Below are positions 17,083 to 60,370 of a stretch of 64,000 bases of DNA, piece by piece. The translations under genes and the position numbers were made by a program. The notes beneath the pieces are model-generated. The model did no database searches. It saw nothing but the letters and a program-made list of their open reading frames with translations, and had not been told where the DNA came from. Source of the DNA: Lama guanicoe (lineage: Eukaryota); assembly GCA_013239625.1 (NCBI GenBank), contig MU053365.1:1646115-1710114 (forward strand), written 5' to 3'. Each line of letters opens with the position of its first letter. Position 1 is the first letter of the stretch.

Positions 17083-17214
17083 TAGGTTGCCAGCTTCAGC
17101 CATTCTGTGTGTAGTACCCCATTCCAGGAAGTGTCATTCATGTGGCTAAAACAATGATTGGCATGTCCTGGAATGAGGTAATGCACAACAGGTACAACAT
17201 TGGTGGTGGTCCTA
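17083..17214 (+). ncRNA. miR-506-family hairpin, miR-507 paralogue (5p arm 17120-17140, 3p arm 17155-17176)
   Basis: CATTCCAGGAAGTGTCATTCA pairs with TGATTGGCATGTCCTGGAATG (first 10 bp perfect, 2 mismatches overall). Apical TGTG is present. The ~0.8-kb flank is paralogous to the 40.9-kb miR-507 copy. Confidence 0.8.
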
Positions 17215-19942
17215 GAGGAGGAGGAATGGCTACCCGGGTCTTCCCTTGAGCCAAGGCACCATGTTTTAAGTGCTAGGCCACATTATATGACCCTTGTATG
17301 TGACTTCTAAGGAGTAAGACATAGGGAGTTAGGGGCCTCTAGGAAAATTTTCATATGTATATTCTTCAGGGATTTAAAAGTTTGTTAAAAAGGGCTGTGC
17401 ATATGAGACCACAGCATTAGGTATAGTTATGATGCTCCTCTGTCTTCCCATTGATATTTCTCTCTGCAAAACCAAATTTCTTCTTTCTTGGATTTGCCTT
17501 CAATAATATTTGAAGCCACCAAAGTACTAGGGGTTAACTATAGTTAAGTTAGCTGAAGCTCTGTCAATCTGATATATAGTTCTCAAGCCTTATTTATTGA
17601 TTTATTATGTGTATACTTGTTCACTTATTTTTTAGTTATTATGTGAAAGATGGATGGGCAAGGAGGAACTACACTGTAGAACTCTTGATAATGATAAAAT
17701 ATTACCTTTTTTTCCCCATCTTATTCACCTTTGGATTTCTATTCTCAACCCCCTGCTCACTGAAGGAGAGAAAGAAGATAGCCAGTAGTTGGAGATCATC
17801 TGCAGAACTGGAGCAGTGCACGGCAAGCCAGTTATACATACATTTTACGTTCTTATGCGGGAAACAGAATCTTGATGATCTGCAAAGGTAAGCCCTCTTT
17901 AACCAAATCAGTGGTTATTGAAAACTAGAGTTTAGGTATTCCTACATCTCAAACAGCCACAGGCCTCACTCCCACTTCAAATCTTGGCAAAAAAAAATTA
18001 GGTTGTGATCCAAAGGGGATTTCTCTATTTGTCTCCTAGCATTATTACCCATGTACAATATGTGTCTACTACTTATGGTATCTTCTTTCCTCCTTCACAT
18101 GATCTAAGGGTTTCTTTACACAGAAAGTCTCATTATTCCAGATATGTACAGGCAGTGACTGTGACACCATTGAAAATTGTTCTCAGATTTATTTGTGTGT
18201 TTATTTTTGAGAAGGTGTGAGAGTTTATATATGAGTATATCTCTGTATAATTGTTCTGGAATTTGTAGGGATTCTTGTTTGACGCGGAGGTGGCCTTGGA
18301 TGGTTTTTGGGAGGAGGTATGTGGAGAAAGCTGATACAAATGATCCATTTCAAACATAGCTACAGTACAGCTTCTAAATAGAAGTAATACGTTCCATGGA
18401 ATATGAAAATGGTACTGCTGCTTTTGGGCTTTGTCATGGATCATAAGTACTTTAACCCGCAAATGACAAATATAATAGACATAGTCTGGTTCTTGTAGAC
18501 ACCATTTGAGAAAGGTCAAAGATGAAAGTTAGGTTCAGCAGTAGGGTTGGGATGTCAGAGTAGGTGCCCCTTGTCTCACAAAGAAAAGAGGACCAGTCAG
18601 CCCAGGGGCTTGGCAACCTGGGAATATATTATTTTCATCTTTCTTCTAGTCTTTAGCAGAACCAATATACTAAAGTTTACTATACAGTTGGGTTCAGTAC
18701 TAAACTACCCACTTCAAAGAACTCTCTGTATTCTTACTCTGCTGCCTAAAAACAAACACAAAGGGATGCAGGTGTTGTTTCTTTGTTCACCAGATGGAAG
18801 CATCCTCTGTGTTCCATTACACTTCCCTTATATAATGATAATCAGCTGCAGGGCATAGCTGAGGTAGAAATAAGTACGCGTCAAAAGACTGTCTGAGCTA
18901 AAAGATGCCATGGGGATTTTGTCCATAACAAACTTCTTATCACAGACCAGATACTTCGATCACGGATGGCTCAGATATATTTATTGAAGATGTGAAAGTT
19001 CTAACAGTTTTGTGAACTGGGAACTATTGAAAATCTATTAGAAAAAAAAGACTTGGGAAAATCCAATTTAAATGCCCCTTTCCTAAGACCTTTTTTTCTC
19101 TATATATAGAAAGTTCTTAGCTAAAAGTGTGTTTCCAAATCCTACTTCCTCTCTGTCTGTAGGGTTGGTATAACATGGCTCTAATAACATGGCTCTTAGA
19201 CTTTGACTGGTTTGTGGTCTCCTGTTACCTTTACATACTCTCATCTTCTATCAGGTTCAGTTGGTCATCGGAAATTCAGAGTGCCAGGCACCTGTGTCAC
19301 AGAATGGAAAATTGGGAAAATATATTATCAACAACCACATCTTTGATCAAGGGCCAAGATAATCTAGAGCTGAGAGTAGGAAAAGGATATCTCTAGGATT
19401 TAAGCTCATCTCTCTCTTGGAATTGAACAGTGATATATTAAATGGTTAGTTTCCTCTCAAGAGATGCAAGAAATGGGATTTCTGCTGTCTCATTATTTGC
19501 ACCTTTGGCTGATTTTCCCTTTCCTTCCTAAGGGTTTTAGTGTGTTTTCACTAATATTATATGGATTTAGAATGAAGGGATTTGGGGGTACCATGGAGTG
19601 TGGGGGTATTGTAAGTATTTAATTACTGTTGTTTTATTGGGATTTGACTAGGTTTACTTTAGGTGAAAGTAGATATTTTCAATACTTAGTTCCTAACAGC
19701 TTGAAAGAATAAAGATATTTCTTAAATGAGAAAGGAAGACCAGGAAGTGGCTTATTCTCTCTTGGGCATGAAAAACACCCAAGGATACATAGAGCAGTTG
19801 GGGGGAAACTTAGAGATGGAATTTAGAGGGCACTAGGGTGGGCAATGCCAAATTCTTACAAAAAAAAATGATGAATGTCATGCCATGGCTGTGGGGATTG
19901 GGCAGGTGTGAGTAGAGCTACGTTAATGTAGAGTGGATTCGG

Positions 19943-20071
19943 CAGAGAAGCCACCTTGAGCCATGCTGTATGCAGTGCCCTATTTAGGAAGACGCCATTC
20001 ACATCCACTATGTTATGAAGTGAGCCTTTCTGAGGAGGGTAATGCTCAAAAGTACAACTTTGTTGGTCACT
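19943..20071 (+). pseudogene. Degenerate miR-506-family hairpin
   Basis: gccaccttgagccatgctgtatgcagtgccctatttaggaag..tgaagtgagcctttctgaggagggtaatgc is clearly homologous, but the arms have about 5 mismatches and several G:U pairs, and the 3' flank is truncated. Confidence 0.65.
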
Positions 20072-21144
20072 AAATTCCCTAAGGAAAATTTGTCCAAAAT
20101 GCGTCATTAAGTGGTCTATACCCCTTTATTATAAAGAGATATGGCCACTGAGAAGGAGGCATGCACTGGGGATATAGCTGTACCTAAATTCTGCTAAATA
20201 AAATTCCCTATTTAGGTAATACCAAGACTCTGTCAAAATGGTGCTCTCTATACTTAGCAATATAATGTCACTCCATCTTCACAGAAGCAACAGGGTTCCC
20301 TGGTGGGCCCTTTGTTAGAATTCCAACATGGTTTTACACAGGGCTTATATAGCACAGGACATCTGAAAACCCCATATTGGGCATGGATGTGGCAGCTGAG
20401 ACTAGATGGAATATCCGCTGATTTTTCAATTGAAAAATTACGAAGTTTACATACAGCACGCCAGCCCATACGTGAGATGCCGCAAATATAGTAGGACAAT
20501 AGGAGAGGCAAAACTTCAAGAAGCTGTTGGTACAAATATGTAATAGCTAGTAAATGAGCAGAATGTGAACTGTGCACAACAGCCCAAAGTACTGTGGAGA
20601 AACAATAAAATATATTGAGAGTTGGGCAGTGCTCCAGAAAGGAGGGGATGTGACAATTTCAAATAGAGTGGTCAGAGAAAGCTTCTCTGAGAAGGCACTA
20701 TTTGAGTAAAGTCCTGTATTAGGTAAGGGATAGAATGAATCTCCAGTTTGTCAATGTTCCAAGGTTTCCTTCTCCCTTGGCAATGGAAGGCCATCCCAGC
20801 TTTTCCTGTTGACCTTTTCTTACTGTCTATACCCACCTCCAGCCCAAATAGTTCCAAGGGATTTTGTGATGCAAATTCATGGAAATATTGAGACACTTTG
20901 GTTTAAGAAGTGAAAAGGAAAGGGGATCTCACAAAGTGGCTGTCAAACTCTGTAATGTATCCCCGAGACAGGAGAATAGGAGTTGATGGAAATAAGAAAA
21001 AAAATGTATTGCCATGATGCTTTATGTAGAGGAGATTTCTCTTCCCTGGGAGGTTTCCAGAAATCACCAGTAAGAAATTGAGTGTATTTTTAAAAAATGA
21101 TATAAGGAAAAAAAATAATTGAGGACTTTTTTTTGATAGCCCCT

Positions 21145-21323
21145 TTGTTTTGTTTTGTTTTGTTTTTTATCATTTGGAATTTCTTTTTATATTTTAGTTT
21201 CCTTTTGAGGGGGTAGGTAATTAGATTGATTGATTGATTTTTTTAAGAGGAGGCAGTGGGGATTGAACCCAGGACCTCTTGCATGCTAAGCATGCACTCT
21301 ACCACTTGAGCTATACCCTCCCC
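21145..21323 (-). mobile_element. tRNA-derived SINE (camelid vic-1-like)
   Basis: The minus strand reads ggggagggtatagctcaagtggtagagtgcatgcttagcatgcaagaggtcctgggttcaatcccc, with Pol III A and B boxes, followed by an A-rich tail. Confidence 0.8.
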
Positions 21324-23934
21324 ACCAAGGCTATTTTATGTGATGGTTTTGCCTGTACTGATTATCCTCGAACGTGAGAAATCCAGATCAGTGACTGAGA
21401 CATCAATTTCTTGGCTTAAAAGAGGTGCAGCTGCCTATTAAACTGGTAGTGCATGTGCACAGGTATGTCTGGGAGTATTAAACTAACTTGCTACACTACT
21501 GACCTAAAACTAGTACATGGCTATGATGGCTAATGCTTGTGCTTCTGCGTTCCTGCTAGATTAAGTTGAGAATGATCTAGCACAAGAAACATGGTGGTAA
21601 AAGAGAAGGTTGAATTGGACAATATATTGCAGTCAAACTCTCTGATAATGGAGCTCATCACATCTGCAGTGTCAATAGGAGAGTGAACCCCCTCTATTAT
21701 AATTTACTTTATTTCCCATGGGAAATAGGGGGGGAAAGTGATATTTCCTCATCTTGGGATAATCTGCACAGAGTAAAAAGAGGCATAAGGTGATCAGTGG
21801 ATCTTAAGACATTCAGTTAGAAGGAGGAGTATTGAGGCTAATAATGTTGAGAAGAGTTAAAGTCTTTTTGGAAATACTGGTACCAATTTTTGATATGCAG
21901 TTTGATGAGATGTACATCCTGGTATACCTGTCACTGTAACTTCCTTTGTTTCTCAAATAACGGTTTATGTATTTCTTTGAAAATATGTTGACTTTAAATT
22001 CTTTATCTGCTAGTATGCTATTTGGAAACTGTCACATGAAGTTTCTTTTGTCTGCTTTTCTCCTGTGTATGGGATGCATTTTTCTTTCCTTTGGCATGTC
22101 TCATGATTTCAGTGAAAGCTGGACATCTTATATGACTAATTGTAGCAACCCTGGATGATGATTTCCCCTCCGTGGGATTATTTTGTTGTTGTTGTTTTCT
22201 GCCAGTTTGTTTATTGTCTTGGCAATTCTATATCAGTGAAGTTTTGTCTGTGGCATGAAACTGTTTTGTGCTTTTCCTATTGGGGCACAGGCTTTGTTAT
22301 GCACACAGTCATTCTGAGAAGACAGTGGTTTTGGTGGAGTTCTCTTCGACTCCTTTTCTTAATGATCTCTCTGTCAGTCTATCTGCCTCCATGTGTACCG
22401 CACCCAGCCCTTAGACTTCCTAACTGCAAGCAGATTATTACGTAGTTTTCAAAATGCTATAGGCAAAAAGTGCTCCAGAGTTTGATCTAAATAATTCCGT
22501 CTCTTTTGCACAGGTAGTTTTGAGGCAAGTCTTTGAGGTTTGTTTAGATAGCACGAGGGCTCTTAGTAGTTCTCTCTCCGCCTGGTTCTCTCTGGCGAGC
22601 AAGCTGGACTGTTTCTCAGCTTATTCCTCGCAGAGTGCTACAACCTCGTTTTATTGACTGATCATCAAAATCTGTCTTGTTTGTGGTGGGTTTAACATAG
22701 CCTACACTCTGTTACAAATAAAGTCTTATTTTTTAGAGAGAGCATTCATATTCTCTGTTATTCAGGGTAGCCTCTCACACTGGGCAAAAATAGTAGAATC
22801 ACTAATCTGGAGCTGTCACTAAAGGCAGGACTGCTTCTCTCAGGGTGACATTTGTGCTATGCAAGCCGGGCGCTTGTCAGTGTCAGTAGATCTTGTTCTT
22901 CTCCACTTGCCTCACCTGATGTGGAGCCAAAGCACAACAATCAGTCTACTGCAAAGTATATTAGAGATCCAGTACTCTTAGACACTGTGCCTGCAGTAGA
23001 ACCTCCAGTCTATGATAGTAAGCGGAGTGGTGGGACAGCGCCCCGAAGTTCTCACCACGTGTGTTTAGAGAAATGCTGGAGGATTGCAACTTCCATGAGT
23101 ACACTGTAGCTCTTGATAGGGAGCTAGAGATAGAGACAATCTAATTTTTACGCCATAGTCACCTTAAAGACTAAAACCCCAGCCTCTGGTCTCCATTTAC
23201 CATATCTGTGTACCTATATTGTGGTGTCTTGGACTCTGATTTTCCAGGGAAATGCAGGCACCATATAGTATATCTCAGAATGAAAATAATGCAATTACAT
23301 GTTTTAAACAATGTCGTTTCAGATAATGACCCAGAAATCCCAAGAGCTAAAGGAACGTAAGGGTGTCCTCCGGTGTCAGGTACATTTTACATCTTGCAGA
23401 TCACTCCTGTTAAGTGCATGGGCTTTGTACACTCTGGGGTCTGAGGAAGAAAAACGATTTCTACTTTTCTCCATCCTACCACCTACTGTTTATTGTCTTT
23501 TTCTTTACATCTAAGATTGTGTGTACTTTCCCTGATTATTCTGTTTCTCTGGAGTTGAGGTAGGTAACTCAGGTACAGGGACTCATACCATGTAAGTCAA
23601 GCATGGATTGGTGGCATGAAGTAAATTTACTGCTTAATTAATGGGTCTGGGGAATACAAACTGCTTGTTAATGCTTTATATACAACAGTGGGAAAAGGAA
23701 TAGGATAAGGCATGCAAGGATATTTCTTCCATAAGCAGCAGAACCTAACAATAAGAATTAATATTTATCAGTTCTGAAAAACTGCCATATGGAATGTCTA
23801 CTATGTAAGTGGCCAGCACCCAGGAGGGGGTATGAGGAAGGACAGTGGAGCTGGTACAGGTCCTATGTACAAATTCCACTGATCACTGAAAATACTAAGG
23901 GACTGCTTCGAAGGCACATTAGTTGTTGTTTAGG

Positions 23935-24067
23935 CAGGGCTGCCATCCGTGGACATGCTGTGTGTGGTACTCGACTGCAGGGAGTGACAATCATATATAA
24001 TTAAAAATGACTGACATCTCTGCTAGGGGAGAAATACCTGACACGTGTGGCTTATGTGATGACACTG
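23935..24067 (+). ncRNA. MIR509: miR-509-like hairpin (5p 23973-23993, 3p 24008-24029)
   Basis: catgctgtgtgtggtactcgactgcagggagtgacaatcatatataattaaaaatgactgacatctctgc closely follows recalled hsa-mir-509, including the TATAATTAAAAATGA loop region. The arms pair, but the lower stem is weaker. Confidence 0.7.
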
Positions 24068-24471
24068 TAGGTGCACCGGGGCTGTTTGGTTACTTGCAGG
24101 GGGATAATTTCCCTTGAGTCCAAGCATGCCGCTCTTACACGCCTTCCATGCCTGTAGTGGATTATTTCAGAGAACTCTTTTCAGGTGCCTTATCAGAGGC
24201 AAGGCCTAAGAACATAAGATTCCCTAAAAGCATCCCACTGAGTTCTTCTGATATTCAATCCAGTTTTCTAAATTTGCTTGCCTGAAATAAGAAGGCTTTT
24301 TGTGCTATTGTGCTGTCCCATTCTGCAGAGCCTATTCTCTACCCTAAGGAACAAATCTGTTCAATTGTTCTATCTATTAGCTTCCCTCCCCATTTTTAAG
24401 CCTTCTCCTTAACCCTCTGAGGCTCAAAATATTACCTATCTCAGGTATGGTGATAATTTTCTGTCTGTATT

Positions 24472-24523
24472 TCTTCCTTCCTTCCTTCCTTCCTTCCTTC
24501 CTTCCTTCCTTCCTTCCTTCCTT
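24472..24523. repeat. (TTCC)n microsatellite
   Basis: About 12 TTCC units seen directly. Confidence 0.95.
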
Positions 24524-25301
24524 GTCTAAAACATGCTTGGTTTTAAAAAAGAATGTTTCAATCCTATGTAAGTCACCAACTTATTAGGGTTTGTGAATCA
24601 TACTGAGAAACTTGTACTCTGTGATATTATTTTTTGTTGTCAGTCTTTAAAAAATTCATGTATCTTTAATCTTTCTGTCACTTTTCTTTTGGTGTCCCTT
24701 CCTAGTGCAGTGAGGAGAGAGAAAAAGCGAAGGCAGAAAAGGGAGAGAGAAGGAGATAATTCTTGGTAAGTGGTCTTTTTTTCACTCCTGGATCTGAGGA
24801 GGAAAAGGGATTTCTACTCTCTCCGTCATACCTACCATGATTATTCTCCCATTCTCCGCTTCTAAGATCCTGTGTATTTTCCCTGCTTATTCTGTGGTTC
24901 AATAGTTGAGATATGTATTCAGGTGGAAAGATTCAGATCTTTGGGTGATAAGCATGGGTTGGTGATACACAGTGTATTTTTTGATAAATGATTGAATTTG
25001 GATAATACAAACTACTTGTTAATGCTTTATATATAACATTGAGAAAACAAACCAGCTAAGGCATCCAAAGTTATTTCTTCCATGAGTAAGAGAAGAACCT
25101 AACTGGAGGGCTTAATGGTTCTTAGTTCTAAAAAGTGTCTTGAGAAAACTCTGAACTATGAGTAGTTAACACTTAGAGAAGGATGGATGGGGAAAGACAG
25201 TTGAGCGAGTGCTATAGTGGTCCTTAGTACAAATGCCAGTGGCCACTCACAGCCTAAAAATACTGAGGGGTTTGCAAAAGGAGCATGAAAGGGTGATTAG
25301 G

Positions 25302-25434
25302 CTGTGTTACCATCATTAGATGTTCTTCTTGTGGTACTCTACTCCAGAGAGCCTCAATCACGTATAATTAGATGTGATTGATACCTCTGTGGGTAGAGTA
25401 ATGCATGACATGTACAACGCAGATGGTGGCACTG
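25302..25434 (+). ncRNA. miR-514/miR-510-like hairpin (5p 25340-25360, 3p 25375-25396)
   Basis: gtggtactctactccagagagcctcaatcacgtataattagatgtgattgatacctctgtgggtagagtaatgcatgac resembles recalled hsa-mir-514/510. The tactctac/gtagagta lower stem and TCAATCAC/GTGATTGA upper stem are perfect. Confidence 0.8.
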
Positions 25435-27466
25435 TGGGTGTATTGGGAGTGTTTAGTTGCAAACAGCAAACGTTTCCCTTAGCACTCTCTCGTCTGTGGG
25501 ACTAGCTCAGAGGCAAGTCCTAGGAACTGAAGGTCCTGGAGAAAGCTTCCCATTGAGTTTCGTCTTGAGTTCCTATCCCTTTTACCAAAGCAGTGTGACT
25601 GAAATGAGAACAAAACCTTTCAGCACTTTCATGGTGTTCCTCACTACTTGTAGGTTTTAGTTTTTTGGTACCTATATCCTACCCCAAACCCCCCAAATGG
25701 TAAAATGTTCTTACCCATTTCTCCCCTTCCCATTTTCAAGACTTTTCTTTAGACAATGGAAAATTACGTTCTGCTTCTCAGGTCCCTAGCCTGTTGAGGC
25801 TTACTTTTTTTTTCTCTTGGGTATTGAAGCACCTTATTTTTTCACAGGACTAGAAGATACCCATTCTTATAAAAATATGTTTAAATCTGGTCTAAGTCAT
25901 CACTTCATCAAGGATTGTACATAGCACCCAATTTTATTCTTTGGTATTATTTTATTTGGTTTATTTTAAAAATTAAGTATCTTTTGCTTTTCTGGAGAGG
26001 GGAGGCTTGGAGATGATAAGCATCATATGCCTGAGTGCCATTGTGTGAACTGGAGAAACATTTTAGGAATAAGAAACTAATTTCACGTTCTTATGTTGTA
26101 CAGAGGGAGGTGATCTAATGCCTCCCTCTAAGTTTGGTCAGGGAGTTGAATTAGAAACAACTCTTTGCAACATTTTGTGACAAATATAAGGAATAAATTG
26201 TATGGATACCCTACCTTAATCCTTTGGGAAATTGTAGTTAAGAAGAATAGAGATACATCTAGATCTGAAGCTGATATATGTTCCCATTTTTACTTAGTTA
26301 CATTTTTATGTGGGTTCAAACTAGAATAACATTCTTCTTGTTGTCTGACATTCAGGCCGTGGCAGTTTGGATCTCAACAAATAGAAAGCCCTCACTTTTC
26401 CCTGGCTTGCTAGAGAGGGAGGCCTACCTTTGACCCTGCCTCTTTCCTTTTACAGTGGATAATGGTAGCTATAAATCGGTACAAATTACTGAAGCCACCA
26501 TAATCTCATTGTTTATATATAAATAGTGGATAAATCTGTAGCTTTTTTGTTAAATCCTCTTCCTGGTGAATTAGATGACTAAGCCAGACCAACATATGAA
26601 TGTAAAGAAAGATTGAGGACATGGGTGGTGGAGACTGAGGTCAAATTTTCTGCTTAACAGTTCTCGAAGACCTTCAGAGTCTATAGATACTGGGAAAATT
26701 TCTTGTCTACTCTGTTTCATCTGATAATATTCCTATTATGAATAAAGAAGAAAGGGCTATGACCACACATAGCAGCCAACTTCAGGGCAAATGATGATTG
26801 GATGAATATAAATATTTTGAGTTTTCTATGTTTATGGATAATGTGGGACTTCCTACAGTTCTGTAAGCTGCAGACTTAACTCATTTTAGGCTAATGAAGC
26901 CAAGATAAGACCCTGAATTCAGGAGGGCTTGGGGAAATTCAGTTTAAGTGTTCCTGACTTCTTAACTTGCTTTCTATCCTCATTGTGAGTAACATGGACA
27001 GGTATGTGTTTTCACAAATTTTCCAATTCCCTAATCCATAAGCTTTTCCATAACCTGGTTTTCATGCTTTTAAAACAAGATTTTTTTTTTTGGTCTTGGA
27101 ATCTATTTGCCTCCTTCCTTCCATGTTATCTTAGAGTGTATGTCCAGGCCAGAAAAATATATACACTTGGAGGCCTGTGGCTCAGAATGGAAAGTTTAGA
27201 AAAAGATCCTCTCTGATAGAAGGCTGATAATTTCAGGGATGAGAGGAAGAACAGGGCATTTCTACACAGTAAGCCCATTTTCTTTCTTGGAAATCAATCC
27301 AGGTAAATTTTATATTTTGTTTCTTCTCTGGGGAAGGGGAAAGAAAAGAAATTTCTGCTTTCTACTTGTTGTCAACTACCAATTCCTCCCTCCTTGTCTC
27401 ACTTGGCATTTATGCACGATTTCTCTGCTTCTTTTGTGGTTCATTAAGGTTTGAAACTCCAAACAA

Positions 27467-28874: not shown

Positions 28875-29011
28875 CTGGGCAGTCACCGCATTTAACCATA
28901 CTTTGTGAAGTGCCCCACTCCAAAGAGTGCCATTCAAGTATACTAAAATATGATTGGCACTTTTTTGAGTGTCGTAATTCACAACATGTACAACCACATG
29001 TGGTGGCCCTG
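28875..29011 (+). ncRNA. miR-506-family hairpin, unassigned (5p 28916-28936, 3p 28951-28972)
   Basis: CACTCCAAAGAGTGCCATTCA pairs with TGATTGGCACTTTTTTGAGTG (2 mismatches, 1 G:U). The lower stem is ttgtgaa/ttcacaa, and the element ends with tggtggccctg. Confidence 0.8.
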
Positions 29012-29699
29012 TGGGAAGATGGTGTGGTTGTCTGTGCACAGCTGCACTCACTTTGGCCAAATCACTAATCTCTCAAAAGACTCAAGTGCTGCTGAAAAGA
29101 CTAGACCTAGGATCTGACGGCACTTGGAAAATCTTCCCATCCAGGTTCTTCAAACATTTACATATGTTTGTCCAAAAAGGACCTGAGACATTGGAACAAG
29201 ATCTGGGTTTGGCCCATCATTCTCTTTCATCCTTTTCTCTCTTCTGTACTAATGCCACTTCTCTTCTAAAGAACCTAGAAGCTCCTTCTTCTTTAATATC
29301 CTCTATATCACTATATCAGCAGCAGTTCAGATGGGACCAGAACTTTTCATTCAGTTAGTCTCTTTGCACATTTTATTTTAATTTTTTGTTTAGTTAATGT
29401 GAAATATAAAGATTTGTTGAAGTGGTGAGAGCTTTCACTTTTCATGCCTTTAGAACTAAAGACATATTGCATAGACTTTTCTCTCTGTTCTTAATGGATC
29501 CTATCTTAATCCAGCTTCTTCAAAGAGAGACTAACAGAGAAAAACAGAGAAAGGTAAAAGATGGCAAACATCACAGCCCTTGGGACCATTTCAGTACTGC
29601 AGCAATTCTTGGGAAACACTTTGTATATTGTACATTTTATGATAGAGAGTTAGTATACCCTGATTCCCCCAGCCTTTGAATCGTTGGCAACTGATGTTT

Positions 29700-30910
29700 G
29701 TCAATATTGCTCTCTGTCTCCAAACAGCCACTTATCTCACTTCACCTCATATCACACATATTAATTAGCTTTTACAAATATATTCAATAATGTGGTTAAC
29801 ACCCACACATTTCTATCAGCCTCCAAAATCCTTCCTGTCCATTTGCAGTTAATCCCTTTCCCTCACTTTTGGACTCTGGAAACAATGAATCTGCATTCTG
29901 TCATTGTAGTTTTGTGTTTTCATAATCTTGGATAAGTGAAATCATACAGAATATGTTAGGCTACTTTCACTTAGCATAATGCACTTAGTAGCCCTGAAGT
30001 TGTTGTGTGTGCTTCTTTTTATTGCTAAGTAGTATTCCATGGTATGGATGTACCACAGTGTTTTGTTTTGTTTTTTTCCCATTTAGCTATTGAAGGACAT
30101 ATGAGTTGTTCCTAATTTGGGGCAATTAAGAATATAACTGCTATAAGTAAGTATATCTTTTTGTGTAAACACAAATTTTAATTTCTCTAGAGTAAATATC
30201 TAGGAGTGGGATCACTGAGCCATATGTGAATGTTTAACTTATAAGAAGCTGCTAAACATTTAAAGTCAATGTACCATTTTGAACTACTGCCAGAAATGTG
30301 TGATATCTCCAGTTGATCCACATCCTACTTCTTAATTCTTATGAGGATCTATTTCTGGGCTCTCTGTTCTATACCATTGATCTATTTCTCTATTCTTTCA
30401 CTAATACTCTGATTACTGTAGCTTTATAGTAAGTGTTGACATCAGACAGTGTTAGTCTTCCAACTTTATATCTATTTTTAAAATTGGTTTGGCTATTCTG
30501 GCTCTTTTGTACTTCCTTATAAATTTTAGAATCAAATTGTTGATATTTATAAAAATTCCTGATGAGATTTTTGATTAGTTTTAAGTTGAATTCATTGATC
30601 CATGTAGAAAGATTTGACATCTTACAACACTAACTCTTCCAATCCATGAGCACAATATGTCTCCATTTGTTTATAGCTACATTTATAATTTTCACTCTAC
30701 ACTAAATGGTGCTATTTTTAAATGTTTAAATCAAAGTTGTTCATTCCTAGTAGATCGAAATGTCATTTATAGTTTGCTGCCCATGTCTCAGGGATCATTG
30801 TCCTTCACTGCCTGATTTCTGGTATCTTATAAACTGTTTCCTACATTTTGGCAGTTTTTCCATTGTTTCAGGTGGGAGGATAAATTTGTTCCCGTAATAT
30901 CGTCTTGGCA
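29700..30910 (-). mobile_element. Old L1M fragments
   Basis: Reverse L1 3'UTR; ORF 30390..30620(-) contains GRLTLSDVNTYYKATVI, matching the L1 ORF2 GGLTLPDFKxYYKATVI motif. Confidence 0.8.
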
Positions 30911-32029
30911 AAACACACACAAATAGGTGGTGGCCCTAAGACTGGCAGGTGTTTATCAGCATTCAGAGAGCTCCTTTCTTTAGAGCCTAGGTACTCTTCC
31001 CCCACTTCAATACTGGGCTACTTCAGAAAACTTTCTTAAGTACCTCCTAAGGTTAAAACCTACAGGCTAAGATTCCATGGGAGAAGCTTCCCACATAGGT
31101 TATTCAGTGATTTAAATTCCTTTGTCTGAAAGTGGCCTGACCAAATGGAAAGAAGACTTGCTAGAATAGCATAACCTTTCTTTCTGTCTTATCACTCTTT
31201 TGCCACTCTGTAGAACCCAATTTTCTCCTTCTCCCCAAACTCTTAACTTTTTTTTTTAACCTATCAATTCCCTTCACTGTTTTCAAAACTTTTTCTTTGT
31301 TACTCTCTAAATTCTCTCCTGCTTCTCAGTTTCCCCACAGTTGGACCAAAACATTATTGAATCTCAGAAACTGAAACCACTTTTTTCTTCATGGACCTAA
31401 ATATTTCCATTCTTTTAGATATACTTTTAAATTATAGATGATATTATCAAATGATCCAAAATTTCCCTCTTTAGACTCTTGTCATTTTTTCCCCTCAAAT
31501 GTATATGTGAAGGGAGAAGGGCAAGAAGGAACCAGTGCTCAGATAGCCTTCTATGATGAAATATTAAGTTGGTTTTTATATCCCACTTTTGATGTCTCTT
31601 CTTAACCTAGCTGGGGAGAGAGCTTCAGAGAGTGAGAGAGTGCTGTCAGCCTTGGGAGTGGAGCAGTGCATGGAAATCAAGCTGTACATTTTATATCTCT
31701 ACATAGGGGCTTCCGGATTCTCCTCTCTTTTAATCCACACTAGAGATTGACTTGACAACTTCTTTTTAGGGAAATTTGCTGCCTACCTTAAACAGAGGAA
31801 TTTAGGTTAAAGGGGAAAGAAGAGGAAAACTCCTCTATTTTATCTATTAGCATTGCTAACTCTGAACAGCATGTGTGTACTTAGGATGGTTTTACTTTGT
31901 ATTGAGGATGTGTGATTTTTTTTTCTTAATTATTTCTTGTTTTAGTTTGGTTTTTTTTTTTTTTGTCGAGGTGCTTATATTTTTCTGGGTGTTATATATT
32001 TGGGATTTTGGGAGGGGAATTTTTGAAAA

Positions 32030-32600
32030 TTGTGGTTAAATATATATAACAAATTTTAACCCTTTTTAAGAGTACAATTCATTGGGATTAAGTACATTCG
32101 CATTGCTGTGCAACCATCACCACCATCCAGATCCAGAACTTTTTCATCTACCCAAACTAAAACTGTGTTCCCATTAAACAGTAACTCTCTGTTGACCCCT
32201 TACCCCTAGCCATTGATAACTTTATTCTACTTTCTGTCTCTATGAATTTACCTATTCTAGGTACGTCATATAATTAGAATAATACATTGTCTCTTTGTGA
32301 TTGGCATACTTTGCTTGGCATAATGTCTTCAAGGTTTATCCATGTTATAGCATGTGTTAGAATTTCATTCCTTTTAAAGGCTGAATAATATTCCATTGTA
32401 TTGTATACCATGTCTCGTATATACATTCATCCACCAATGGACATCTGGGATATTTCCACCTTTTGGCTATTGTGAATAATAATGCTGCTATGAATGTTGA
32501 TGTACAAATATTTGTTCCAGTCTGTTTTCAGTTGTTTTGAGTATATATCCAGAAGTGGAATCGCTGGATCATATGGTAATCTTATTTTCATTTTCTTGAA
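32030..32600 (-). mobile_element. L1M 3' end
   Basis: ORF 32427..32612(-) contains LPYDPAIPLLDIY; typical reverse 3'UTR. Confidence 0.85.
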
Positions 32601-32703
32601 GAAAGGGGACACTCACTCAGGAAGGGTGGGAGAAGGACAGTGAGGCAGTCAGTCACATGCTGGAAATTCAACATTGGATGCAAATCACATGTGTGTATAT
32701 GGG

Positions 32704-32831
32704 CAGGGCCACCAACTTCAGCTGAGTGTAGTGCCCTACTCCAGAGAGTGTCATTCACATACACTACAACATGATTGTCACTTTTTGGAGTAGAGTAATG
32801 CACATCATATGTGAAATATGTGGTGGCTCTG
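32704..32831 (+). ncRNA. MIR508: miR-508 orthologue (5p 32737-32757, 3p 32772-32794)
   Basis: cttcagctgagtgtagtgccctactccagag..catgattgtcactttttggagtagagtaatgcacatca is near-identical to recalled hsa-mir-508. The arms pair with 2 U:U mismatches. The termini cagggccacca / tggtggctctg are inverted repeats (10 of 11 match). Confidence 0.9.
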
Positions 32832-34069
32832 GAGGTGAGTATATGTGTATAGCTGCATATGCATAGCTGCCCTCCCTTGAGTCCAAGAAGCATCTCCCTT
32901 TGCTAGGCTACTTCAATTGACTCTCATAAGCAGGTTTAAGTAAGGCTTAGGGACTGAGGGCTCCTTGGAAAAGTCACCCATGGAGTTTTTCCAAGGATTT
33001 GTATATCCTTGTCCAAAGGAGATGTGCCTACATGGGTGTAAAATTTGTAGTGAGGACGTGGCTTTCCCTCTGTGCGTTCAGAGCTTCTACTGTTTGCAGA
33101 ACCCAAGTACTTTTTACGCCCCTCCAAACCTCTAATCTGTTCTTTCCTAGCTGCATTCTTTATAGTTCCCAAGCTTTTCCCTTTTACTTTGGGGCTTTTC
33201 AAATTCCTTCCTGCTTTCCTTCCATATCCCAAAGCTCTTTACTCTCAAGATTGAAGATAAGTTGTTCCTCAGGGATTTGGATGCACTTCATTACTTGGAA
33301 AACTTTCTTCTAAAGCATATGTACGTCAATATGTTCATATATTTAAGTATTTATTTTAAATTCATGTTTTTGTATAGCTATATCAATTCTTTTGGAATTC
33401 ACCATAACCATAGGGGTTAAGAAGATGCCTAGAACATTTAATTTGGTAGTTCCTTTTACTCTATTTAACATTTTGATTTTTGAATTCTGTGAAAGGATGA
33501 AGAGAAGGAAAGGTACTCATCTCAGACCTCCTGAGAATGAGAATGACACTTTGTCTTTTCCCTTTCATATTCCTTGAGGTGTTCCTTCTTAGCCAGAGTC
33601 TTTGCAAAGAAAGAAAAATCAAGAATCAGAGAAGATAGATGACATCAGACCCCCGGAGACCTTCTTCAGGACTGGAGCAGTGACTGAGAAGCAGGTTGAA
33701 TACACTATTGTTCTGGGAAATGGGAGTGGGGAACTGTCATCCTGATGCCCCCTCCCAGATGAGCTCATATAACCCACATCACATTAGTGCATTGAACGGA
33801 CAAGTAGAAATTTCTAGAATTTTGCCGTCATTTCAAATCAGTTACATGTATTACCCCACTACAAATCTTGGGGGAAATTTATAGTGTGACCAAGAGGAAA
33901 GGAATTCCTCCATTTTATGTCCCAGTATTACTACATTACTACCTATGTACAATCAATGCCTACTGCTTAAAAGGTGTGTTACCCTCTCATGAGCTCTATA
34001 GATTTCCCTGAGCAGAAACTCTTACATCCCCAGATTTGTCCCAGTCAGTGACAGTGATGCTATTGTAGA

Positions 34070-35180
34070 TTGTTCTTAGATTGGATTGTGTGCTTATTTT
34101 TGAGAAGGTGTGAGAGTTTATGAGTGTGTGTTGGTGTTCATGAATTCATTATTTTGTTCATGTACATATTATATTGTTTGAATTTGGTTAGAGCTTTCAG
34201 ATTGTTTTTGCTTAGTAATATTTTTTATTTAGACTTTGGTACCCGATTTTTTATTTATTTTTGTGATTATTCTGTTTCTTATGCTTTCATTTGCAGTCTG
34301 TGTGCAAAGTTAGTGTTTTTTGTTTCTGTTTCAGTATGCATGGCATTTTGGGTTGGTATTATTTGTATGCTTGAAGGAATTTTTTTTTTTGCTAGAATTT
34401 TGACTTGCTTAGTGAATGTTTTAATTTTGGTTTTGTTGGGTGTGTTATTTTTTAATTATTTGTTTTGGGTTCAAGTCTGGGTTTCTTTGGTTTTGATTTG
34501 TTTATGTGTTTTGATTTATTATGAGATGTGCTTTGGAGTTTTAGTTGCGGTTTTGTGTATGTGTGTGTTTATTGTGTGCATTTTCTTTGTGTTTTGAGAT
34601 TTTTAAATTTGTATGATTTTTTAAATGGATCTTGCTATTTTTCCCTTTAATATTTGTGGGTGAGTTCTTTAAGTTTTGTTTTGTGGGTGTTTACCTGTGT
34701 GTGTTGTATTTCAGTTTGGTTTGTGCAAGTTCATTTGGGTTTTGTATGTTTTGCCTCAGTGTCTATATATGCTTGAATGGTTTGGTATTTGCAGTATGTT
34801 TTTTCATTGATATATTCATGTATTGTTTTTGTTTGAACCTTGTTGTAGTTGTTTTATTTATTTTTTTAAATCCTATTTATTGAGCTTGACTTATATAGAG
34901 GATTGTTGGTAGGGATTTTTTCAAAAATCTTATTGATTTTGGTTTATTACTGATTTATTTGTGCCATGTTTTTCTGACTGATTTTTTTATTGTTTATAAA
35001 GGTTTTGGTACATTGGGGTATGAGTTGTTTGGAGGGACGGACTATTTGTGTAGTTGTTTGTTGATTATTTTTTAGCTTATTTTAAGTATTTCTTTTTTGA
35101 ATTGTGTGTATGAGTGTGTATTTTTAATTTGGGGCTTTTTATATTAAGGGATGACTTTATTTTGGGAGATGACTTAATTT
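34070..35180 (+). repeat. Long G/T-rich, C-depleted low-complexity tract
   Basis: Seen directly; no exact tandem unit. Confidence 0.85.
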
Positions 35181-35199
35181 TATTCCATTCCTCTTCATT

Positions 35200-36290: not shown

Positions 36291-36309
36291 ATCAAAATTG
36301 GCAAAATTG

Positions 36310-36452
36310 AAGAGGACCTTTACCAGAACTCAACCATGCTGGCTCCCTGATCTCAGACCTCCAGCCTCCAGAACTGTGAGCAATAATTTCTGTTGTTTAG
36401 AAGCTACCCAGTCTATGGTACTTTGTTAAAGAAGTCTGAGTGGACTAATACA
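36310..36452 (+). mobile_element. MLT1 LTR 3' fragment
   Basis: ctgatctcagacctccagcctccagaactgtgagcaataatttctgttgttt..ctaataca. Confidence 0.8.
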
Positions 36453-36519
36453 AATGAGATGGGTAAGAACTCTGCAACCTCTGTCTTTAGGTGTCCAGTG
36501 AGAAGGTCAGGGCTGTGAT

Positions 36520-38097: not shown

Positions 38098-38230
38098 CAG
38101 GGCTGCCACATTCAGCCACATTGTGTGCAGTGCCCTACTCAAAATGGTATGATTCACACAAACTAAACAATGAAGTTTGCTTTTGAAGTAGAGTAATGTA
38201 CAACATGTACATCTACATGTAGTAGTCCTG
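38098..38230 (+). pseudogene. Degenerate miR-506-family hairpin
   Basis: cagggctgccacattcagcc..gtgcagtgccctactcaaaatgg..tgaagtttgcttttgaagtagagtaatgtacaacatg; the upper half of the stem pairs poorly. Confidence 0.7.
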
Positions 38231-38419
38231 GGTGTGGGGGTGGAGCTTCAGGCACAGAGCTGCCCTCCTGAGTAAGGCACCACCTTCAGTGCTGAGCTAT
38301 TATATGCAGAGGACTCTCAGAAACACATCTTTAGAGGCCAGATCCAACATAGCAGCATCCCTGGGAAAAGCTTCTTATATGCATTATTCAGAGATTTGCA
38401 TCCTATTGTTCTAAAAATG

Positions 38420-38445
38420 CCTTTTTTAATGGTTGAATAAGATTT

Positions 38446-40400: not shown

Positions 40401-40933
40401 CATGTGTAATGTTGCTGCTGTTTCTGCTGCTGCAGCCCTCCATGTATGATCAGAGGATGCCAAGCTGAAGCCCACGTGGTGATACAAGGAAGACTCATGG
40501 TGTGAAGAAGAAGATAATTCTCTCAAGCAGTTCCATCCAAGCTCTATCTGGTCTGCAATATCTAAATGCGATGAGTGAGTTGTGTGATTCTTTCTACTAA
40601 ACAACTGACTTTGGGGAGGTACAACGTCATTTTGCATGTGGCAGCTAGGTCAAAATGAAAATAAGCTGAATAATGGAGGCACATATTCTGTGTCCATGAG
40701 GAAGAGGGAAAAGGAAAGGAGGAAGGCTTATTCTCTCTCAGTCCTAAAATCTGTCTCATTAAATGCACAGCAGGGGAGGGGATAAGCAGTCAGGGAAAGG
40801 AAGAAGAGAGAGGAGAGTATGTTGGTTATTTTCTAGATCTTTTGGGTATATTCTGCTGATTACTCATTGGCTGAGTGTTGGGGTATTGATTAAACTGCCA
40901 TAGTGAGGGAAGGTGCTTTTTTTGTGGTTTAGG

Positions 40934-41066
40934 TAGGGTCACCACCTTTAGCTATGCTGTGTGCAGTGCTCCACTTCAGGAAGTGCCATCCATGTGGCTA
41001 GAGATATGATTGGCATCTCCTAGAGTGAAGTAATGCACAACACGTACGATGTCAGTGCTGGCCTTG
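40934..41066 (+). ncRNA. MIR507: miR-507 orthologue (5p 40972-40992, 3p 41007-41028)
   Basis: tgctgtgtgcagtgctccacttcaggaagtgccatccatgtggctagagatatg..gagtgaagtaatgcacaaca follows recalled hsa-mir-507 and lies ~310 bp upstream of the miR-506 copy, a close pairing as in human. Confidence 0.85.
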
Positions 41067-41245
41067 GGAGAGGGGATATGGTCATGTGCTCATAGGTATC
41101 ATTTTTTGAATCTTGGAACCACCCACCTAGTGCTGGTTCAACTCATGGGACCCTTTAAGAGCCTTCTATAACCTAGAGAAGGAGGGTCCCGGAAAAATGC
41201 TCACCTACAGGTTCTCCAGGGTTTTATATTGCTGTTAAAAAAGGT

Positions 41246-41375
41246 CAGGGCTGCCACCTTCAGCTACTGTGTTCAGTGCCCTACTCAGGAAGGTGTTGTT
41301 TACATAGATTGATATGTGAATGGCACCTTATGAGTAGAGCAATGTATAATGTGGACAACATTTGTGGTGGCATTA
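41246..41375 (+). ncRNA. MIR506: miR-506 orthologue (5p 41282-41302, 3p 41317-41338)
   Basis: tactcaggaaggtgtt..atagattgatatgtgaatggcaccttatgagtagag..tggacaacatttgtggtggc; the 3' tail matches recalled hsa-mir-506 and the arms pair. Confidence 0.85.
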
Positions 41376-41884
41376 GTAGTGGTGGGTGGATATTTAGTTC
41401 CAGAGCTGCACTCCCTCGAGTCTGGGTACCCACCTTTAAGTGATGGGTCGCCTCCTAATACTCTCTGAAACACCTCTTAAAACACCTGATCCAGAATTTG
41501 AGGGCCCCTGGGAAAAGTCTCCCATGTGGGATCTTCAGGTATTTATAGCTCTTTGTCCACAAAAGGACTGACCACAGTTAGAACAGTATTTGGGGTATGA
41601 ACATGAACCTTTATCTCTTGTATTTCTTAGCCTTTCCTCCCTGTGCAACCCAAATACACTTACTACTTTCAAAACTCCTGAAGAGTTTACACCTAATTGC
41701 TTTCCTCATAATAATCAAGCTTTCTTTTTTGGCAGCCAGAACACCCTCCTGCCCTTCCCTGCTGAACCCCAAACTCCTTTAACCCTCTTATGGAGTGTTG
41801 CTAGCTCTCTCTTCAAGGTTTAGATGCTCCACAATTCCTTTGAATATTCCTGTATACCCTTGATGATTTTATCACATTAGTAAT

Positions 41885-43110
41885 ACACACACACACACAC
41901 ACACACACACCCCTATTAAAGAAAGAGAGATTGAGATTGGTTTGTTACAAAGAATTGGCTCACTTTATTAGAGAGTCTAAGTCCCAAGTTGTTAATTTCC
42001 AAGATCTGCAGGGTGAGCTAGTAAGCTGGAGACCCAGAGTAACTAACCCAGGTTCCAGTCTGAAAGCTGGCAGAGTTGAGACTCAGGAAGAATTAATGTT
42101 TTAGTTCAAGTCCAAAGGCAGGAAGAAACTTATGTCTCAGCTCAAAGGCAGTCAGGCAGGAGGGATTCTCTCTTACTCAGTGATGGTGAGCCTTTTTGTT
42201 CTATTCAAGCCTTCAACTGATTTGATGAGGCCCAAAATTAAGGAGAGCAATCTGCTTTACTCCATCTACCAATTTGATGTTAATTTCACCCCAAAACACC
42301 CTTACAGGAGCACTCAGAATATGTTTTTACCAAATATCTGGACACACTGTGGCCCAATCAAATTGACACATAAAATTAAACATCAAAAAATCCACCCCTT
42401 GTCAACTTGGAGCCCATATGCATCTCCTGAACGCTTACTTAATCTCCAAATGAAGGCAATAACATGGTCATAATTCTTCCTAACATGATAAAACTATCTT
42501 GTGTACAACTGCAAATGCACTAACCCCTTCCCCGTAAGAGGAAGTAAAGTCCTTGAGTGATGTTTACTCTTCTCCTTGATATCCCATGACTGAAATACTA
42601 TGATGTAAAGGTTAAAATATTTAATTACCATGATTTAAAGTCAATGCATCTTATGTTACAGGATAATGAGACAACAGAGAGAAGGAAGCAAGCAGATTTG
42701 CTGTATAGTATACACAAATACATTCATAACAAAGTAAGTTGGAAATACGACAATTACACATTTCTGTAACTGGTTATGTGATTGTAACTGTCATTTATAA
42801 TTACCTCTTCCACTACCCATTCTGTATTTTCTCTGTCTTCAGCAGGCACTTCAGCTGATCATGATTCTTTACTTGGTAGGGTGATCCAAACCTTCTTTCC
42901 TGAAGATTCTGGGCCATCTGTAGTCCTGCCTGGAATGGATTGTTGTGGGTTTTCATTTATCTTAGTCACAGGTCCAGTAATACTAAGAGATGTCCTAAAG
43001 GATCTCCTATATTCCAGACATAATCTTCTTACTTCCATTGTAGAGTATAAATCCAGTTTCCTCTTGGTAGTCTTGATCAATCACCCTAACTCCCTTCTCA
43101 GACCTTTTGA
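41885..43110 (-). mobile_element. ERV-L 3' internal fragment (42390-43110) plus MLT2 3' LTR (~41910-42384), with a (CA)n tract at its left edge
   Basis: The minus-strand LTR start tgatgtttaattttatgtgtcaatttg is preceded by the PPT-like aaggggtgga. ORF 42859..43080 (PQQSIPGRTTDGPESSGKKVWITLP) matches the ERV-L pol C-terminal region. Confidence 0.85.
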
Positions 43111-44080: not shown

Positions 44081-45871
44081 CATGGTGTAATGGGTCTTAG
44101 AATCTCCTACTATGTGCTAGGTTGCTACAAAGACTTCTCTGAAGCTACTACTGATGGGTGGGTGAAATAGAGGAGAAGAAATTGTACTCATGCTAATGAT
44201 TGAAGGAAAGTTTAGAGTTGTTATTCTTTCCGCTTAAGAAGTTTAAGGAGGCATGTCAAGAGCTCAAATACTTCAAGGAAGATAGAATTGGACAAAAGAG
44301 AAATTGATCTATGTAAATGTTTCTGTGTAATCTGACTTTGGTTACTTTTCATGAATTTTAATAAATTTAAAGAAAGGATCAAGATACTTAGAATCATTTT
44401 ATTCTCTGAAATATGTTTCATTGACCATGACCAAGCCCTGGGACTGAGCTGTATACTGCCCTGTCTTTTGGGAGTTATAGATATTTAGTAGACTGATGGG
44501 AATGATGCACAGGAACACCTGAGACAACGAATCTCCATTATTTTCCCATACCAATTTAAAATAAGTACATGGCTACTGTGAAAGATGCTTCTAATCATTC
44601 AGTCTTATTAAACTAAATGCAGAATAATCCAGCCCAGTACCATGTGTTGGAAAGGAAGGAATTCTATCCAGTTCCCCATCAACACAGTTTCATTATATCT
44701 ATAGTATCCAAATTAGATGGGGCATCTCTCTACTGTATTCTATTATTTCTATTAGAATTGCTTTGGAAAATTAGAAAGAAAGTAATATATCTTGAGTTGG
44801 GGCTAGGAAGAAACAAAACAGAGTCTAGGTGGCCTGTTTCAGTTGGAAATTTCCCTTGAGAGCATGAATTTATGGTCATAGGCTATCATAAGTCTTTCTG
44901 TATTACACACAAATATTAGGGAATGTGTGATGTTTCTTACATTTAAAGAAGATAACTAGTTTTATGGACATTTGAAAAAACAAGGGAACAGATGCAGACA
45001 GGAAGACAAGGAGGCATCCAGATTACATTTTCCTCACTCTTATATTACCGTATATTTCAAAAGTAAGAAATGTAGCTGATATATATTTACACAAATGCTC
45101 TTATATCTCTTTTCACAAGAACTTCCAGAACCCATTTTTCATATTTTTAAATCAACCCTGTGTTTGTTCTGGTATTATCCCTTATATTTCCCTCTAACTT
45201 GTTCCAGGCTCAGTTTGTCAAGGAAATGCAGGCACCTAGTAGCATATCACAGAATGTAAAAATGTGGAAATGTGCTAATAACAACCATGCATCCAAAGAA
45301 AAGTTCAGAAAACTCAGGAGCTAAGAGGATGAGGCACCAAGAATATTCTCTGTCTTGTTGACAACTCCTGATAAGTAACTCTTTTATTCATTCCAGAGTC
45401 TAAGAAGGGAAAGAGTCCTCTACTCTCTCCATCCCACCAGCTACTGATTATTCTTCCATTCTTTGCTTCTAAGATCCTGCGTTTTACCTGCTTATTTTGT
45501 GTCTCAGGAGGTGAGGTAAGCAACTTAGGTAGAGGGACTCAGATCTTTAGGTGACAAGGGAAGAGTTAGTGTGATGGAATATATTTTCTGCCTAAATATT
45601 GAATCTGGGAAATGCAAATTACTTGTTAATAAACATATATAACAGTGGGAAAAGAATCAAGATAAGACTTGTGAAGATATTTCTTCTATGAGCAGGAGCA
45701 CTTAAGAGGAGGTATTAATGGTTCTCAGTTCCTATAACTGTCATGTGAAAACCTCAACATGTGAGAGGATAGCACTCAGGGATGGATGGAAGAGAAAAGT
45801 CAGCAGTGTGGGTGCTATAGAGTTCCTTTGGACAAATGCTGGTGGCCACTCACAGCCTGAAAACATGAGGA

Positions 45872-59100: not shown

Positions 59101-60231
59101 CTATTTACACACAAAAATAAATCTAAATCTAAAATTATTCCAAAATGTATGTAAGAGAAACCAGGAAAAAACAACTGAAAAGTGTACATCGAATTCTGCT
59201 TCTGCCTTGTATACAAAACAATGAAAGATGTGGATTTCAACATAATAACATGAGAAAGTCAGATAAACACCAAACTCATAATTTTTCTTGAACACCTTAG
59301 AGATCTATGGTCATAGATCTATAAAGTAGCTTGATTTTAAGAAAAGATAGCCCCTCCCAGAAGAAATAGGATGCAGGTACTGGCTTATCAGTGACAGAGA
59401 AATTGAAGTAACTGTATTGGCTTAGCAAGGACCCAAGTCACAAGCAACAGCACCACTGGGAAAGGGGTAGGGACCTGGAGAGAGATCACTATGTGATTTA
59501 GGTGTGATGGATGTCAGAGGTCAATGAACAAAGTAAAAGCACTGAGAAAAGTCCTCTGAAATCCAGACATCACCCTAAGCACAAAACAATGCTAGACAAA
59601 TGTAAACCCTGTACTGAGTTTAAGCTAAGCATCACAACAATAAATCCCAATCCCAAATTCATAACTGACAACATTGACTCAACTGCCCTATCACATGAGA
59701 AAAGCCTGACAGAAAAAGTGGTGTGTTCATTTCCAGATGCAAATATTATTTACCTCATTTTCTACTATTCTGTACATGATATTCAGCATCAAATAAAAGT
59801 TTTAAAATACACACTCGAAAGACAAGGAAACCTACTATCAAGAGACAAAGAAATCAATAAAACAAGATTCAGAGATCATCTATCAGACAGAGACTTTATC
59901 ATAACTATGATTAACGTATTTAAGTATCTAGTGGAAAAGTAGACATCTTGCATGAGCCGCTGGGGAACTTTAGCACAGAGATAGAAACTATAAGAAAGAG
60001 TTAAATGGAAATGCTACAAATATAGAAAAAACAACATGCTTCTTTCAGAGATAAAGATTTACTTTGGTGTGTCAGTAATTATCTCAGTGCCTTGCAAAGG
60101 CAGAAATCTGTGAAGGCTTGAATAAAAGCATTTCCACATAATCTTTCTTACGGTTTCTCTGTGCTAAAATTCCCCGTCTGCTCATATGAGGTGTCTACTT
60201 TTTCCACCAAATATTAAATATGTTAATCATA
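56170..60231. mobile_element. Patchwork of L1M fragments in both orientations
   Basis: Several L1 3'UTR pieces (56170-56725 -, 56740-57105 +, 57150-57355 -, 57858-58030 -, 58185-59140 +) and L1 5'-type sequence to ~60230. Confidence 0.65.
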
Positions 60232-60237
60232 TTTGGG

Positions 60238-60370
60238 TTGGGCTGCCACACTGAGCCATTCAGTGTGCAGTGCCTTTCACAAGAAGGTGTCATTCATGTG
60301 GACTAAAATATGAATGGTGCCTTTTTGAGAAGAGTAATGTACAACATGCAGGGCATGCGTGGTGGCCCTG
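60238..60370 (+). ncRNA. MIR513: miR-513 orthologue (5p 60276-60297, 3p 60311-60332)
   Basis: gccacactgagccattcagtgtgcagtgcctttcacaagaaggtgtcattcatgtggactaaaatat follows recalled hsa-mir-513. The 5p arm TTCACAAGAAGGTGTCATTCAT differs from recalled miR-513b-5p at 2 positions. The stem has one true mismatch. Confidence 0.9.

Follow-up and report, generated by a model that had tools for sequence, protein, structure and literature searches.

The window analyzed here is a 64,000-nucleotide (nt) stretch of the Lama guanicoe genome (C722:1646115-1710114, + strand, in a 2.05-Gb assembly of 55,231 contigs), and it carries ten mutually homologous fold-backs that match models of the MIR-506 family of microRNAs (miRNAs). 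All ten lie on the + strand, with starts at 17083, 19943, 23935, 25302, 28880, 32704, 38098, 40934, 41246, and 60238. The mean column identity of the ten units is 71% over 147 alignment columns, and pairwise identities range from 50 to 76%. A covariance model built from these units (R1; 138 positions, 37 pairs) delimits them at 133-138 nt. The initial annotation had described ten homologous + strand fold-backs of the miR-506 family, and both parts of that description are upheld by the alignment, the window search with R1, and independent Rfam matches. Nine of its ten start coordinates are identical to the R1 starts; the fifth, given as 28875, is off by 5 bp.

With filters off and both strands of the window searched, R1 recovers the ten units at 102.6 to 132.3 bits (E 7e-27 to 3e-35), all in + orientation, a recovery that is circular in that the model was made from those same units. 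The reverse strands of the units score 10.6 to 53.3 bits. No eleventh copy is present in the 64 kb, where the best other R1 match attains 13.1 bits (E 0.19), and no further copies are found at E <0.7 within 100 kb upstream or downstream (R1 over 20 loci, default filters). The window therefore holds the complete cluster, with exactly ten members.

Independent support for the family comes from Rfam, in which all ten units fall to the mir-506/507/509/513 group (clans CL00136 and CL00140; models RF04302, RF04282, RF04216, and RF04286, respectively) with E values of 2.6e-9 or better. Six of the ten reach the gathering scores. The highest match is that of mir-513 at 60263 (99.0 bits, E 1.3e-21), followed by mir-507 at 32724 (91.5 bits), 28903 (91.3 bits), and 40959 (83.9 bits), and by mir-509 at 25327 (86.8 bits) and 23960 (68.8 bits, cut-off 64.5).

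Folding and placement of the hairpins

The 138-nt units were folded and compared with 200 shuffles each, and seven of them reach a z-score of -3.6 (rounded) or lower. Precursor miRNAs (pre-miRNAs) were then cut in the family register, with the 5p arm starting at alignment column 42 and the 3p arm ending two bases past its partner. The resulting 57-58-nt segments include seven strong hairpins of ~58 nt (-23.1 to -28.9 kcal/mol) with ~22-nt arms and a 2-nt 3' overhang. Modeling thus predicts seven strong pre-miRNA hairpins, a marginal one at 23935, and two decayed copies at 19943 and 38098. These energies and z-scores come close to an earlier estimate of about eight plausible and two decayed members, the plausible ones here amounting to seven strong hairpins plus the marginal one.

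The fold is retained across the family. Paired cells make up 88.8% of the ten units. Both partners differ in 14 of 37 pairs; shuffles give 7.0 +/- 1.9, with none of 500 reaching 14, and sliding the partners gives 4-8. Seven units carry a basal UG at -14, and six a CNNC motif at +17/+18. Among the ten paralogues, the basal stem beneath the Drosha cut site (alignment A1, columns 30-41 and 100-109) is 72-76% identical, the mature arms 59-66%, and the loop 49-52%. Better conservation of the basal stem is what one would expect from a retained processing scaffold with drifting seeds.

Individual hairpins were placed by seeds, order, and spacing, with the MirGeneDB table of ten species as the seed reference (supplementary file 1, PMC11031087); no camelid is among the ten. 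Exact 7-nt seeds shared with an FMR1-side P1, P2, P3, P6, or P7 locus are found in seven of the ten hairpins. At the head of the cluster stands a P2-type, mir-507-like duplicate (17083..17219; predicted pre-miRNA 17120-17177, -28.9 kcal/mol, z -5.41). Its 3p seed, GAUUGGC or UUGGCAU, is that of Cfa-Mir-506-P2d and Dno-Mir-506-P2, and its 5p seed, AUUCCAG, occurs in no locus of the ten-species table. The second unit (19943..20079; predicted pre-miRNA 19981-20038, -9.9 kcal/mol) appears decayed: its z-score is -0.50, with 60 of 200 shuffles folding equally well, its best Rfam model is mir-8908 (57.7 bits), and its seeds have no match in the table.

Two mir-509-like copies follow. The first (23935..24072; predicted pre-miRNA 23973-24030, -13.8 kcal/mol, z -1.84) is the marginal one; it has no CNNC, and neither its 5p seed ACUGCAG nor its 3p seed GACUGAC has an exact match in MirGeneDB. 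The second (25302..25439; predicted pre-miRNA 25340-25397, -24.4 kcal/mol, z -6.07, CNNC at +18) is of the MirGeneDB P7/P4 type, with a 5p seed (ACUCCAG) identical to that of Cfa-, Mmu-, and Rno-Mir-506-P7 and the 3p seed GAUUGAU. Hairpin 5 (28880..29016; predicted pre-miRNA 28916-28973, -24.9 kcal/mol, z -6.64, CNNC at +18) is P2-type and occupies the position of human mir-514b and cow P2h. Its 5p seed is ACUCCAA and its 3p seed GAUUGGC or UUGGCAC, the latter shared with Cfa-P2e, Ocu-P2, and Cpo-P2b. Hairpin 6 (32704..32836; predicted pre-miRNA 32737-32794, -23.1 kcal/mol, z -6.28) is the probable mir-508 (P3) orthologue, with a 5p seed (ACUCCAG) equal to that of Bta-P3 and a 3p seed (GAUUGUC or UUGUCAC) equal to that of Dno-P3 and Ocu-P3.

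The seventh unit (38098..38235; predicted pre-miRNA 38136-38192, -7.0 kcal/mol, z -2.24) stands where cow has P2g and appears decayed. Its upper stem is open, and its seed matches only P9, which lies at an unrelated position; we regard this match as coincidence. Hairpin 8 (40934..41071; predicted pre-miRNA 40972-41029, -26.0 kcal/mol, z -3.57) is assigned as the mir-507 (P2) orthologue, its 5p seed ACUUCAG being that of Bta-P2f/P2g and its 3p seed GAUUGGC or UUGGCAU that of Cfa-P2d and Dno-P2. It sits 312 bp upstream of hairpin 9, and the P2-P1 spacing is 249-299 bp in human, cow, dog, mouse, and rat. Hairpin 9 (41246..41380; predicted pre-miRNA 41282-41338, -28.2 kcal/mol, z -4.37, CNNC at +18) is the corresponding mir-506 (P1) candidate, sharing its 5p seed ACUCAGG with Dno-P1 and its 3p seed GAAUGGC with Cfa-P1. 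Finally, hairpin 10 (60238..60375; predicted pre-miRNA 60276-60333, -24.4 kcal/mol, z -5.23) is the likely single-copy mir-513 (P6) orthologue, with a 5p seed (UCACAAG) equal to that of P6 in guinea pig, rabbit, rat, and tenrec, and of Hsa-P6b.

Since MirGeneDB paralogues agree with the hairpins in seeds, order, and spacing, the members left unplaced in the human set by the initial annotation can be read as P2-type and P7/P4-type copies, which are named in other laurasiatherians. These members can thus be assigned to known paralogue types and form no new subfamily.

The human FmiR set, also called FX-MIR, lies on chrX between SLITRK2 and FMR1 and consists of MIR514A1-3, 510, 509-1/2/3, 514B, 508, 507, 506, and 513A1/A2/B/C (MirGeneDB Mir-506-P1 to P8 and P29). 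The hg38 coordinates place 509, 514b, 508, 507, 506, and 513 in that order on the minus strand (PMC11031087, supplementary file 1), exactly as had been quoted for the human cluster. The window resembles this arrangement in its covariance-model families, its orientation relative to FMR1, the order of 509-like, 508, 507, 506, and 513 members, and the tight 507-506 pair (312 bp vs 249 bp in human). It differs in having ten loci in 43 kb rather than 16 in ~95 kb, a single mir-513 copy rather than four, and two 509-like copies rather than three. P2-type copies stand where human has 514a/510 and 514b, and two of the loci here are decayed.

Agreement with cow is closer still in the second half of the cluster. 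Each of the last six hairpins corresponds to one of the six cow loci, in unchanged order (P2-type, P3, P2-type, P2, P1, and P6, for Bta-P2h, P3, P2g, P2f, P1, and P6), with spacings of 3.8, 5.4, 2.8, 0.31, and 19.0 kb compared with 5.2, 17.1, 3.7, 0.29, and 14.3 kb in cow; the 507-506 pair is separated by 293 bp in the latter species. The order also matches that of dog (Cfa-P7, P2e, P3a/b, P2d, and P1). Exact seeds are held in common with Bta-P3, Bta-P2f/g, Cfa-P2d, Cfa-P2e, Cfa-P1, and Cfa-P7. In contrast, for the four upstream copies (17083, 19943, 23935, and 25302) cow has no listed counterpart, the P2g position here holds a decayed copy, and two seeds deviate from those of cow (P1, ACUCAGG vs ACUUAGG; P6, UCACAAG vs UCAUAGG).

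Duplicated flanks and dispersed copies

Homology between certain units extends well into the surrounding DNA. Hairpins 17083 and 40934 have 513 bp of upstream flank in common at 71% identity, and 23935 and 25302 share ~510 bp at 68% identity, which identifies the latter two as tandem duplicates. Shorter flank matches connect 28880 with 40934 and 32704 with 41246. In a maximum-likelihood tree of 19 units, the same two pairs emerge as sisters (17083 and 40934 with support of 97/91; 23935 and 25302 with 98/96). Because the flanks were duplicated together with the units, the copies arose by local segmental or tandem duplication and not by repeated insertion. Inspection of the immediate flanks yielded no convincing 8-bp target-site duplications, as expected for copies made by segmental duplication; homology runs a few bases past the unit ends, with '..gg' preceding most of them. 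We note that the upstream flank of the mir-509-like copies (24755-25268 and 23460-23824) recurs at 45360-45870 with 73% identity. R1 detects no hairpin beside this recurring flank, which is an interspersed repeat or else what remains of a duplicate whose hairpin was lost.

Related copies are also found elsewhere in the genome. A BLAST search with one unit returns only that unit and 38098, and is too insensitive for dispersed copies. The dispersed copies come from Rfam family searches of the assembly and cmsearch with R1 on the fetched flanks. Three copies on other contigs (including C2832 and C55221) match the full 138-nt length of R1 at 50.7 (E 1.6e-12), 36.0, and 25.3 bits, and a fourth locus, on C4751, matches the R1 core only (positions 29-104). 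In the tree, the X-linked copies as a whole have these three full-length copies as their sister group (support 99/99).

The MIR-506 family is reported to derive from MER91C, a non-autonomous DNA transposon (PMC11031087). Like MER91C and the mir-652-type miRNAs, the units in the window are palindromes of ~130-140 nt with paired termini, and the dispersed copies match both the full R1 and mir-652. The earlier proposal that the hairpins are transposon-derived is in line with these whole-model matches, which would fit an origin from the mobile element published as MER91C. Unlike the dispersed copies, the units in the window form a separate group (99/99), are tandemly amplified with their flanks, and have stems of miRNA grade.

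Synteny, transcription, and interpretation

The genomic setting points to the fragile-X region. The Pfam family FXMRP1_C_core has matches on three contigs of the assembly, as expected for FMR1, FXR1, and FXR2, and one set of exons lies at C722:1184189-1186090 (-), 477 kb from the cluster, on the opposite strand and head to head with it. AF-4 family matches occur on four contigs, one of which is again C722 (387933-655631, -), beyond the FMR1-type gene. To our knowledge, FMR1 and AFF2, on Xq27-28, are the only linked pair among the FXR and AFF genes. Since FXMRP1_C_core and AF-4 matches are found together on this contig, its order would read AFF2 (-), FMR1 (-), miRNAs (+), equivalent to the fragile-X arrangement of the literature when viewed from the opposite strand. 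We infer X-linkage from these FMR1/AFF2-type neighbors, and the FMR1 side of the synteny anticipated in the initial annotation is thereby borne out. In the published arrangement, SLITRK2 and FMR1 share one strand and the MIR-506 family occupies the other (PMC11031087), and FMR1 and the miRNA cluster are head to head (PMC6362356).

How the cluster is transcribed is less certain. The ten units are co-oriented and no intervening gene was found. No open reading frame (ORF) in the window exceeds 186 aa, and none of the seven ORFs scanned, out of nine of at least 120 aa, has a Pfam match. Of the words sampled from 32600-42599, which covers 10 kb with four hairpins and the spacers between them, four RNA-Seq runs from one study labelled 'reproductive system' (X1-X4) contain a share of 0.46-0.49, compared with 0.74-0.78 in DNA-type runs; these shares hint at long transcripts over the spacers. 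The small shares in runs X5-X12 and X21-X24 are not counted as evidence. Together with the co-orientation, the shares in X1-X4 would fit one or a few long primary transcripts read from left to right. A single primary transcript is called 'a possibility' for mouse and human in PMC6362356, wording that leaves room for several independent units here, for example 17083-25439, 28880-41380, and 60238-60375. The 19-kb gap before hairpin 10 and the two dead copies between live ones speak for such a division, as does the base composition: the window contains no CpG island (CpG observed/expected <=0.31 in every 2-kb bin, GC 36.7%) and no CpG-type promoter for the cluster. Against it stand the uniform orientation of the ten units, the lack of any gene or Pfam-bearing ORF between them, and the RNA-Seq runs that hold about half the words of a stretch with four hairpins. 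Separate transcription units are a serious contender, at somewhat short of even odds.

It is rather doubtful that this lineage has rebuilt the head of its cluster to functional effect. Such a history would have a P2 unit with 513 bp of flank copied from the 507/506 pair to 17083, at the FMR1-proximal end, private seeds (AUUCCAG, ACUGCAG at 23935, and ACUCCAA at 28880) addressing private germ-line targets, and one primary transcript of >43 kb in reproductive tissue. The copy at 17083 does fold as well as any member of the cluster.

We read the ten elements as the FMR1-proximal half (the 'FmiRs') of a eutherian genome's X-linked MIR-506 family, with a probability of roughly 0.93. Each unit would be a palindrome of ~138 nt left by a non-autonomous DNA transposon (MER91C in the literature); its inner stem would be the ~58-nt pre-miRNA, with the basal stem extended by its terminal inverted repeats. 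The cluster grew through segmental and tandem duplications at the locus, in which flanking DNA was copied too. By analogy with the published biology of the family, Drosha/DGCR8 and Dicer would process the seven well-folding hairpins, and perhaps 23935, to 5p and 3p miRNAs, and these products would be made mainly in male germ cells, fine-tuning spermatogenic mRNAs. The units at 19943 and 38098 would be dead copies.

Several observations weigh against this assignment. Four of the ten units remain below the curated Rfam cut-offs (E 7.9e-17 to 2.6e-9): 41269 (mir-506, 80.5 vs 84.5 bits), 17107 (mir-507, just short at 78.1 vs 79), 19966 (mir-8908, 57.7 vs 74), and 38123 (mir-507, 54.9 vs 79). Three units (19943, 23935, and 38098) fold no better, or little better, than shuffled sequence, the basal UG is absent in three and the CNNC in four, and no unit has a full UGUG within the loop as delimited here. 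The miRNA yield of the hairpins is a prediction from sequence and fold, the RNA-Seq shares of 0.46-0.49 may reflect DNA carry-over, and the RNA-Seq contigs give neither strand nor continuity. The name MER91C is taken from PMC11031087 and not from a repeat-library match. As for the neighbors, FMR1- and AFF2-type identity stems from Pfam domain matches and linkage, not from orthology tests; the Tudor_FRX1 model has no exon match on C722 and does match the two other FXR-type genes; and C722 ends at 2,413,483, 703 kb beyond the window, before SLITRK2 is reached.

The poorly folding units and the reliance on prediction for miRNA output would also suit a local pile-up of decaying MER91-type copies that fold merely as palindromes and yield no miRNAs in this species, as would the dispersed genome copies that match R1 and the Rfam mir-507 and mir-652 models, but such a pile-up is very improbable given that the copies in the window score 55-99 bits on curated miRNA models compared with 39-48 for the dispersed ones, that seven clean 57-58-nt hairpins persist despite identities of 50-76% with compensatory changes at twice expectation, that identical seeds occur in expressed orthologues from other mammals, that all ten units lie on one strand at a syntenic site, and that flanks duplicated together with the units leave no place for separate insertions.

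Taken as an FmiR cluster, the locus offers a coordinate-level annotation of the FMR1-proximal MIR-506 genes in a species outside the ten-species table of PMC11031087, in which, as predicted from sequence and fold, seven genes are likely live, one is marginal, and two are dead. The cluster seems to be unannotated in this mammal. 'Camel' and 'alpaca' have zero occurrences in the main text of PMC11031087, and one literature search, judged by title and abstract, found no publication on miR-506 in camelid testis. The annotation adds a data point on cluster turnover, in which units are duplicated in tandem together with their flanks, seeds drift, and the basal stem is conserved. No concept is changed: published work already covers the family, its origin from a transposon, its synteny, and the part it plays in sperm competitiveness, and the find is a sound but ordinary one in a well-known, fast-evolving, testis-linked cluster.

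Other features of the contig and window

A mir-8908-like relative of the family lies ~706 kb beyond hairpin 10 (L040:8685-8796, equal to C722:2412168-2412279, +), and the contig ends 1.2 kb later. Three tiny contigs (808-1002 bp) contain one or two copies apiece, GC-rich (0.6) and located at L042:269-404, at L043:113-253 and 625-756 (-), and at L044:219-356 and 859-972; they are of two alternating types spaced 510-640 bp apart. The copies group together in the tree (support 100/98), and they look like an assembly-breaking tandem array of SLITRK2-side ('SmiR'-like) MIR-506 relatives.

Within the window, a tRNA-Ala(AGC)-like sequence at 21247-21320 (-), between hairpins 2 and 3, scores only 36.5 bits on the tRNA model; a pseudogene or a repeat derived from a tRNA is the probable reading. 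Between the two mir-509-like copies, a perfect (CTTC)n microsatellite with 12.8 copies occupies 24473-24523.

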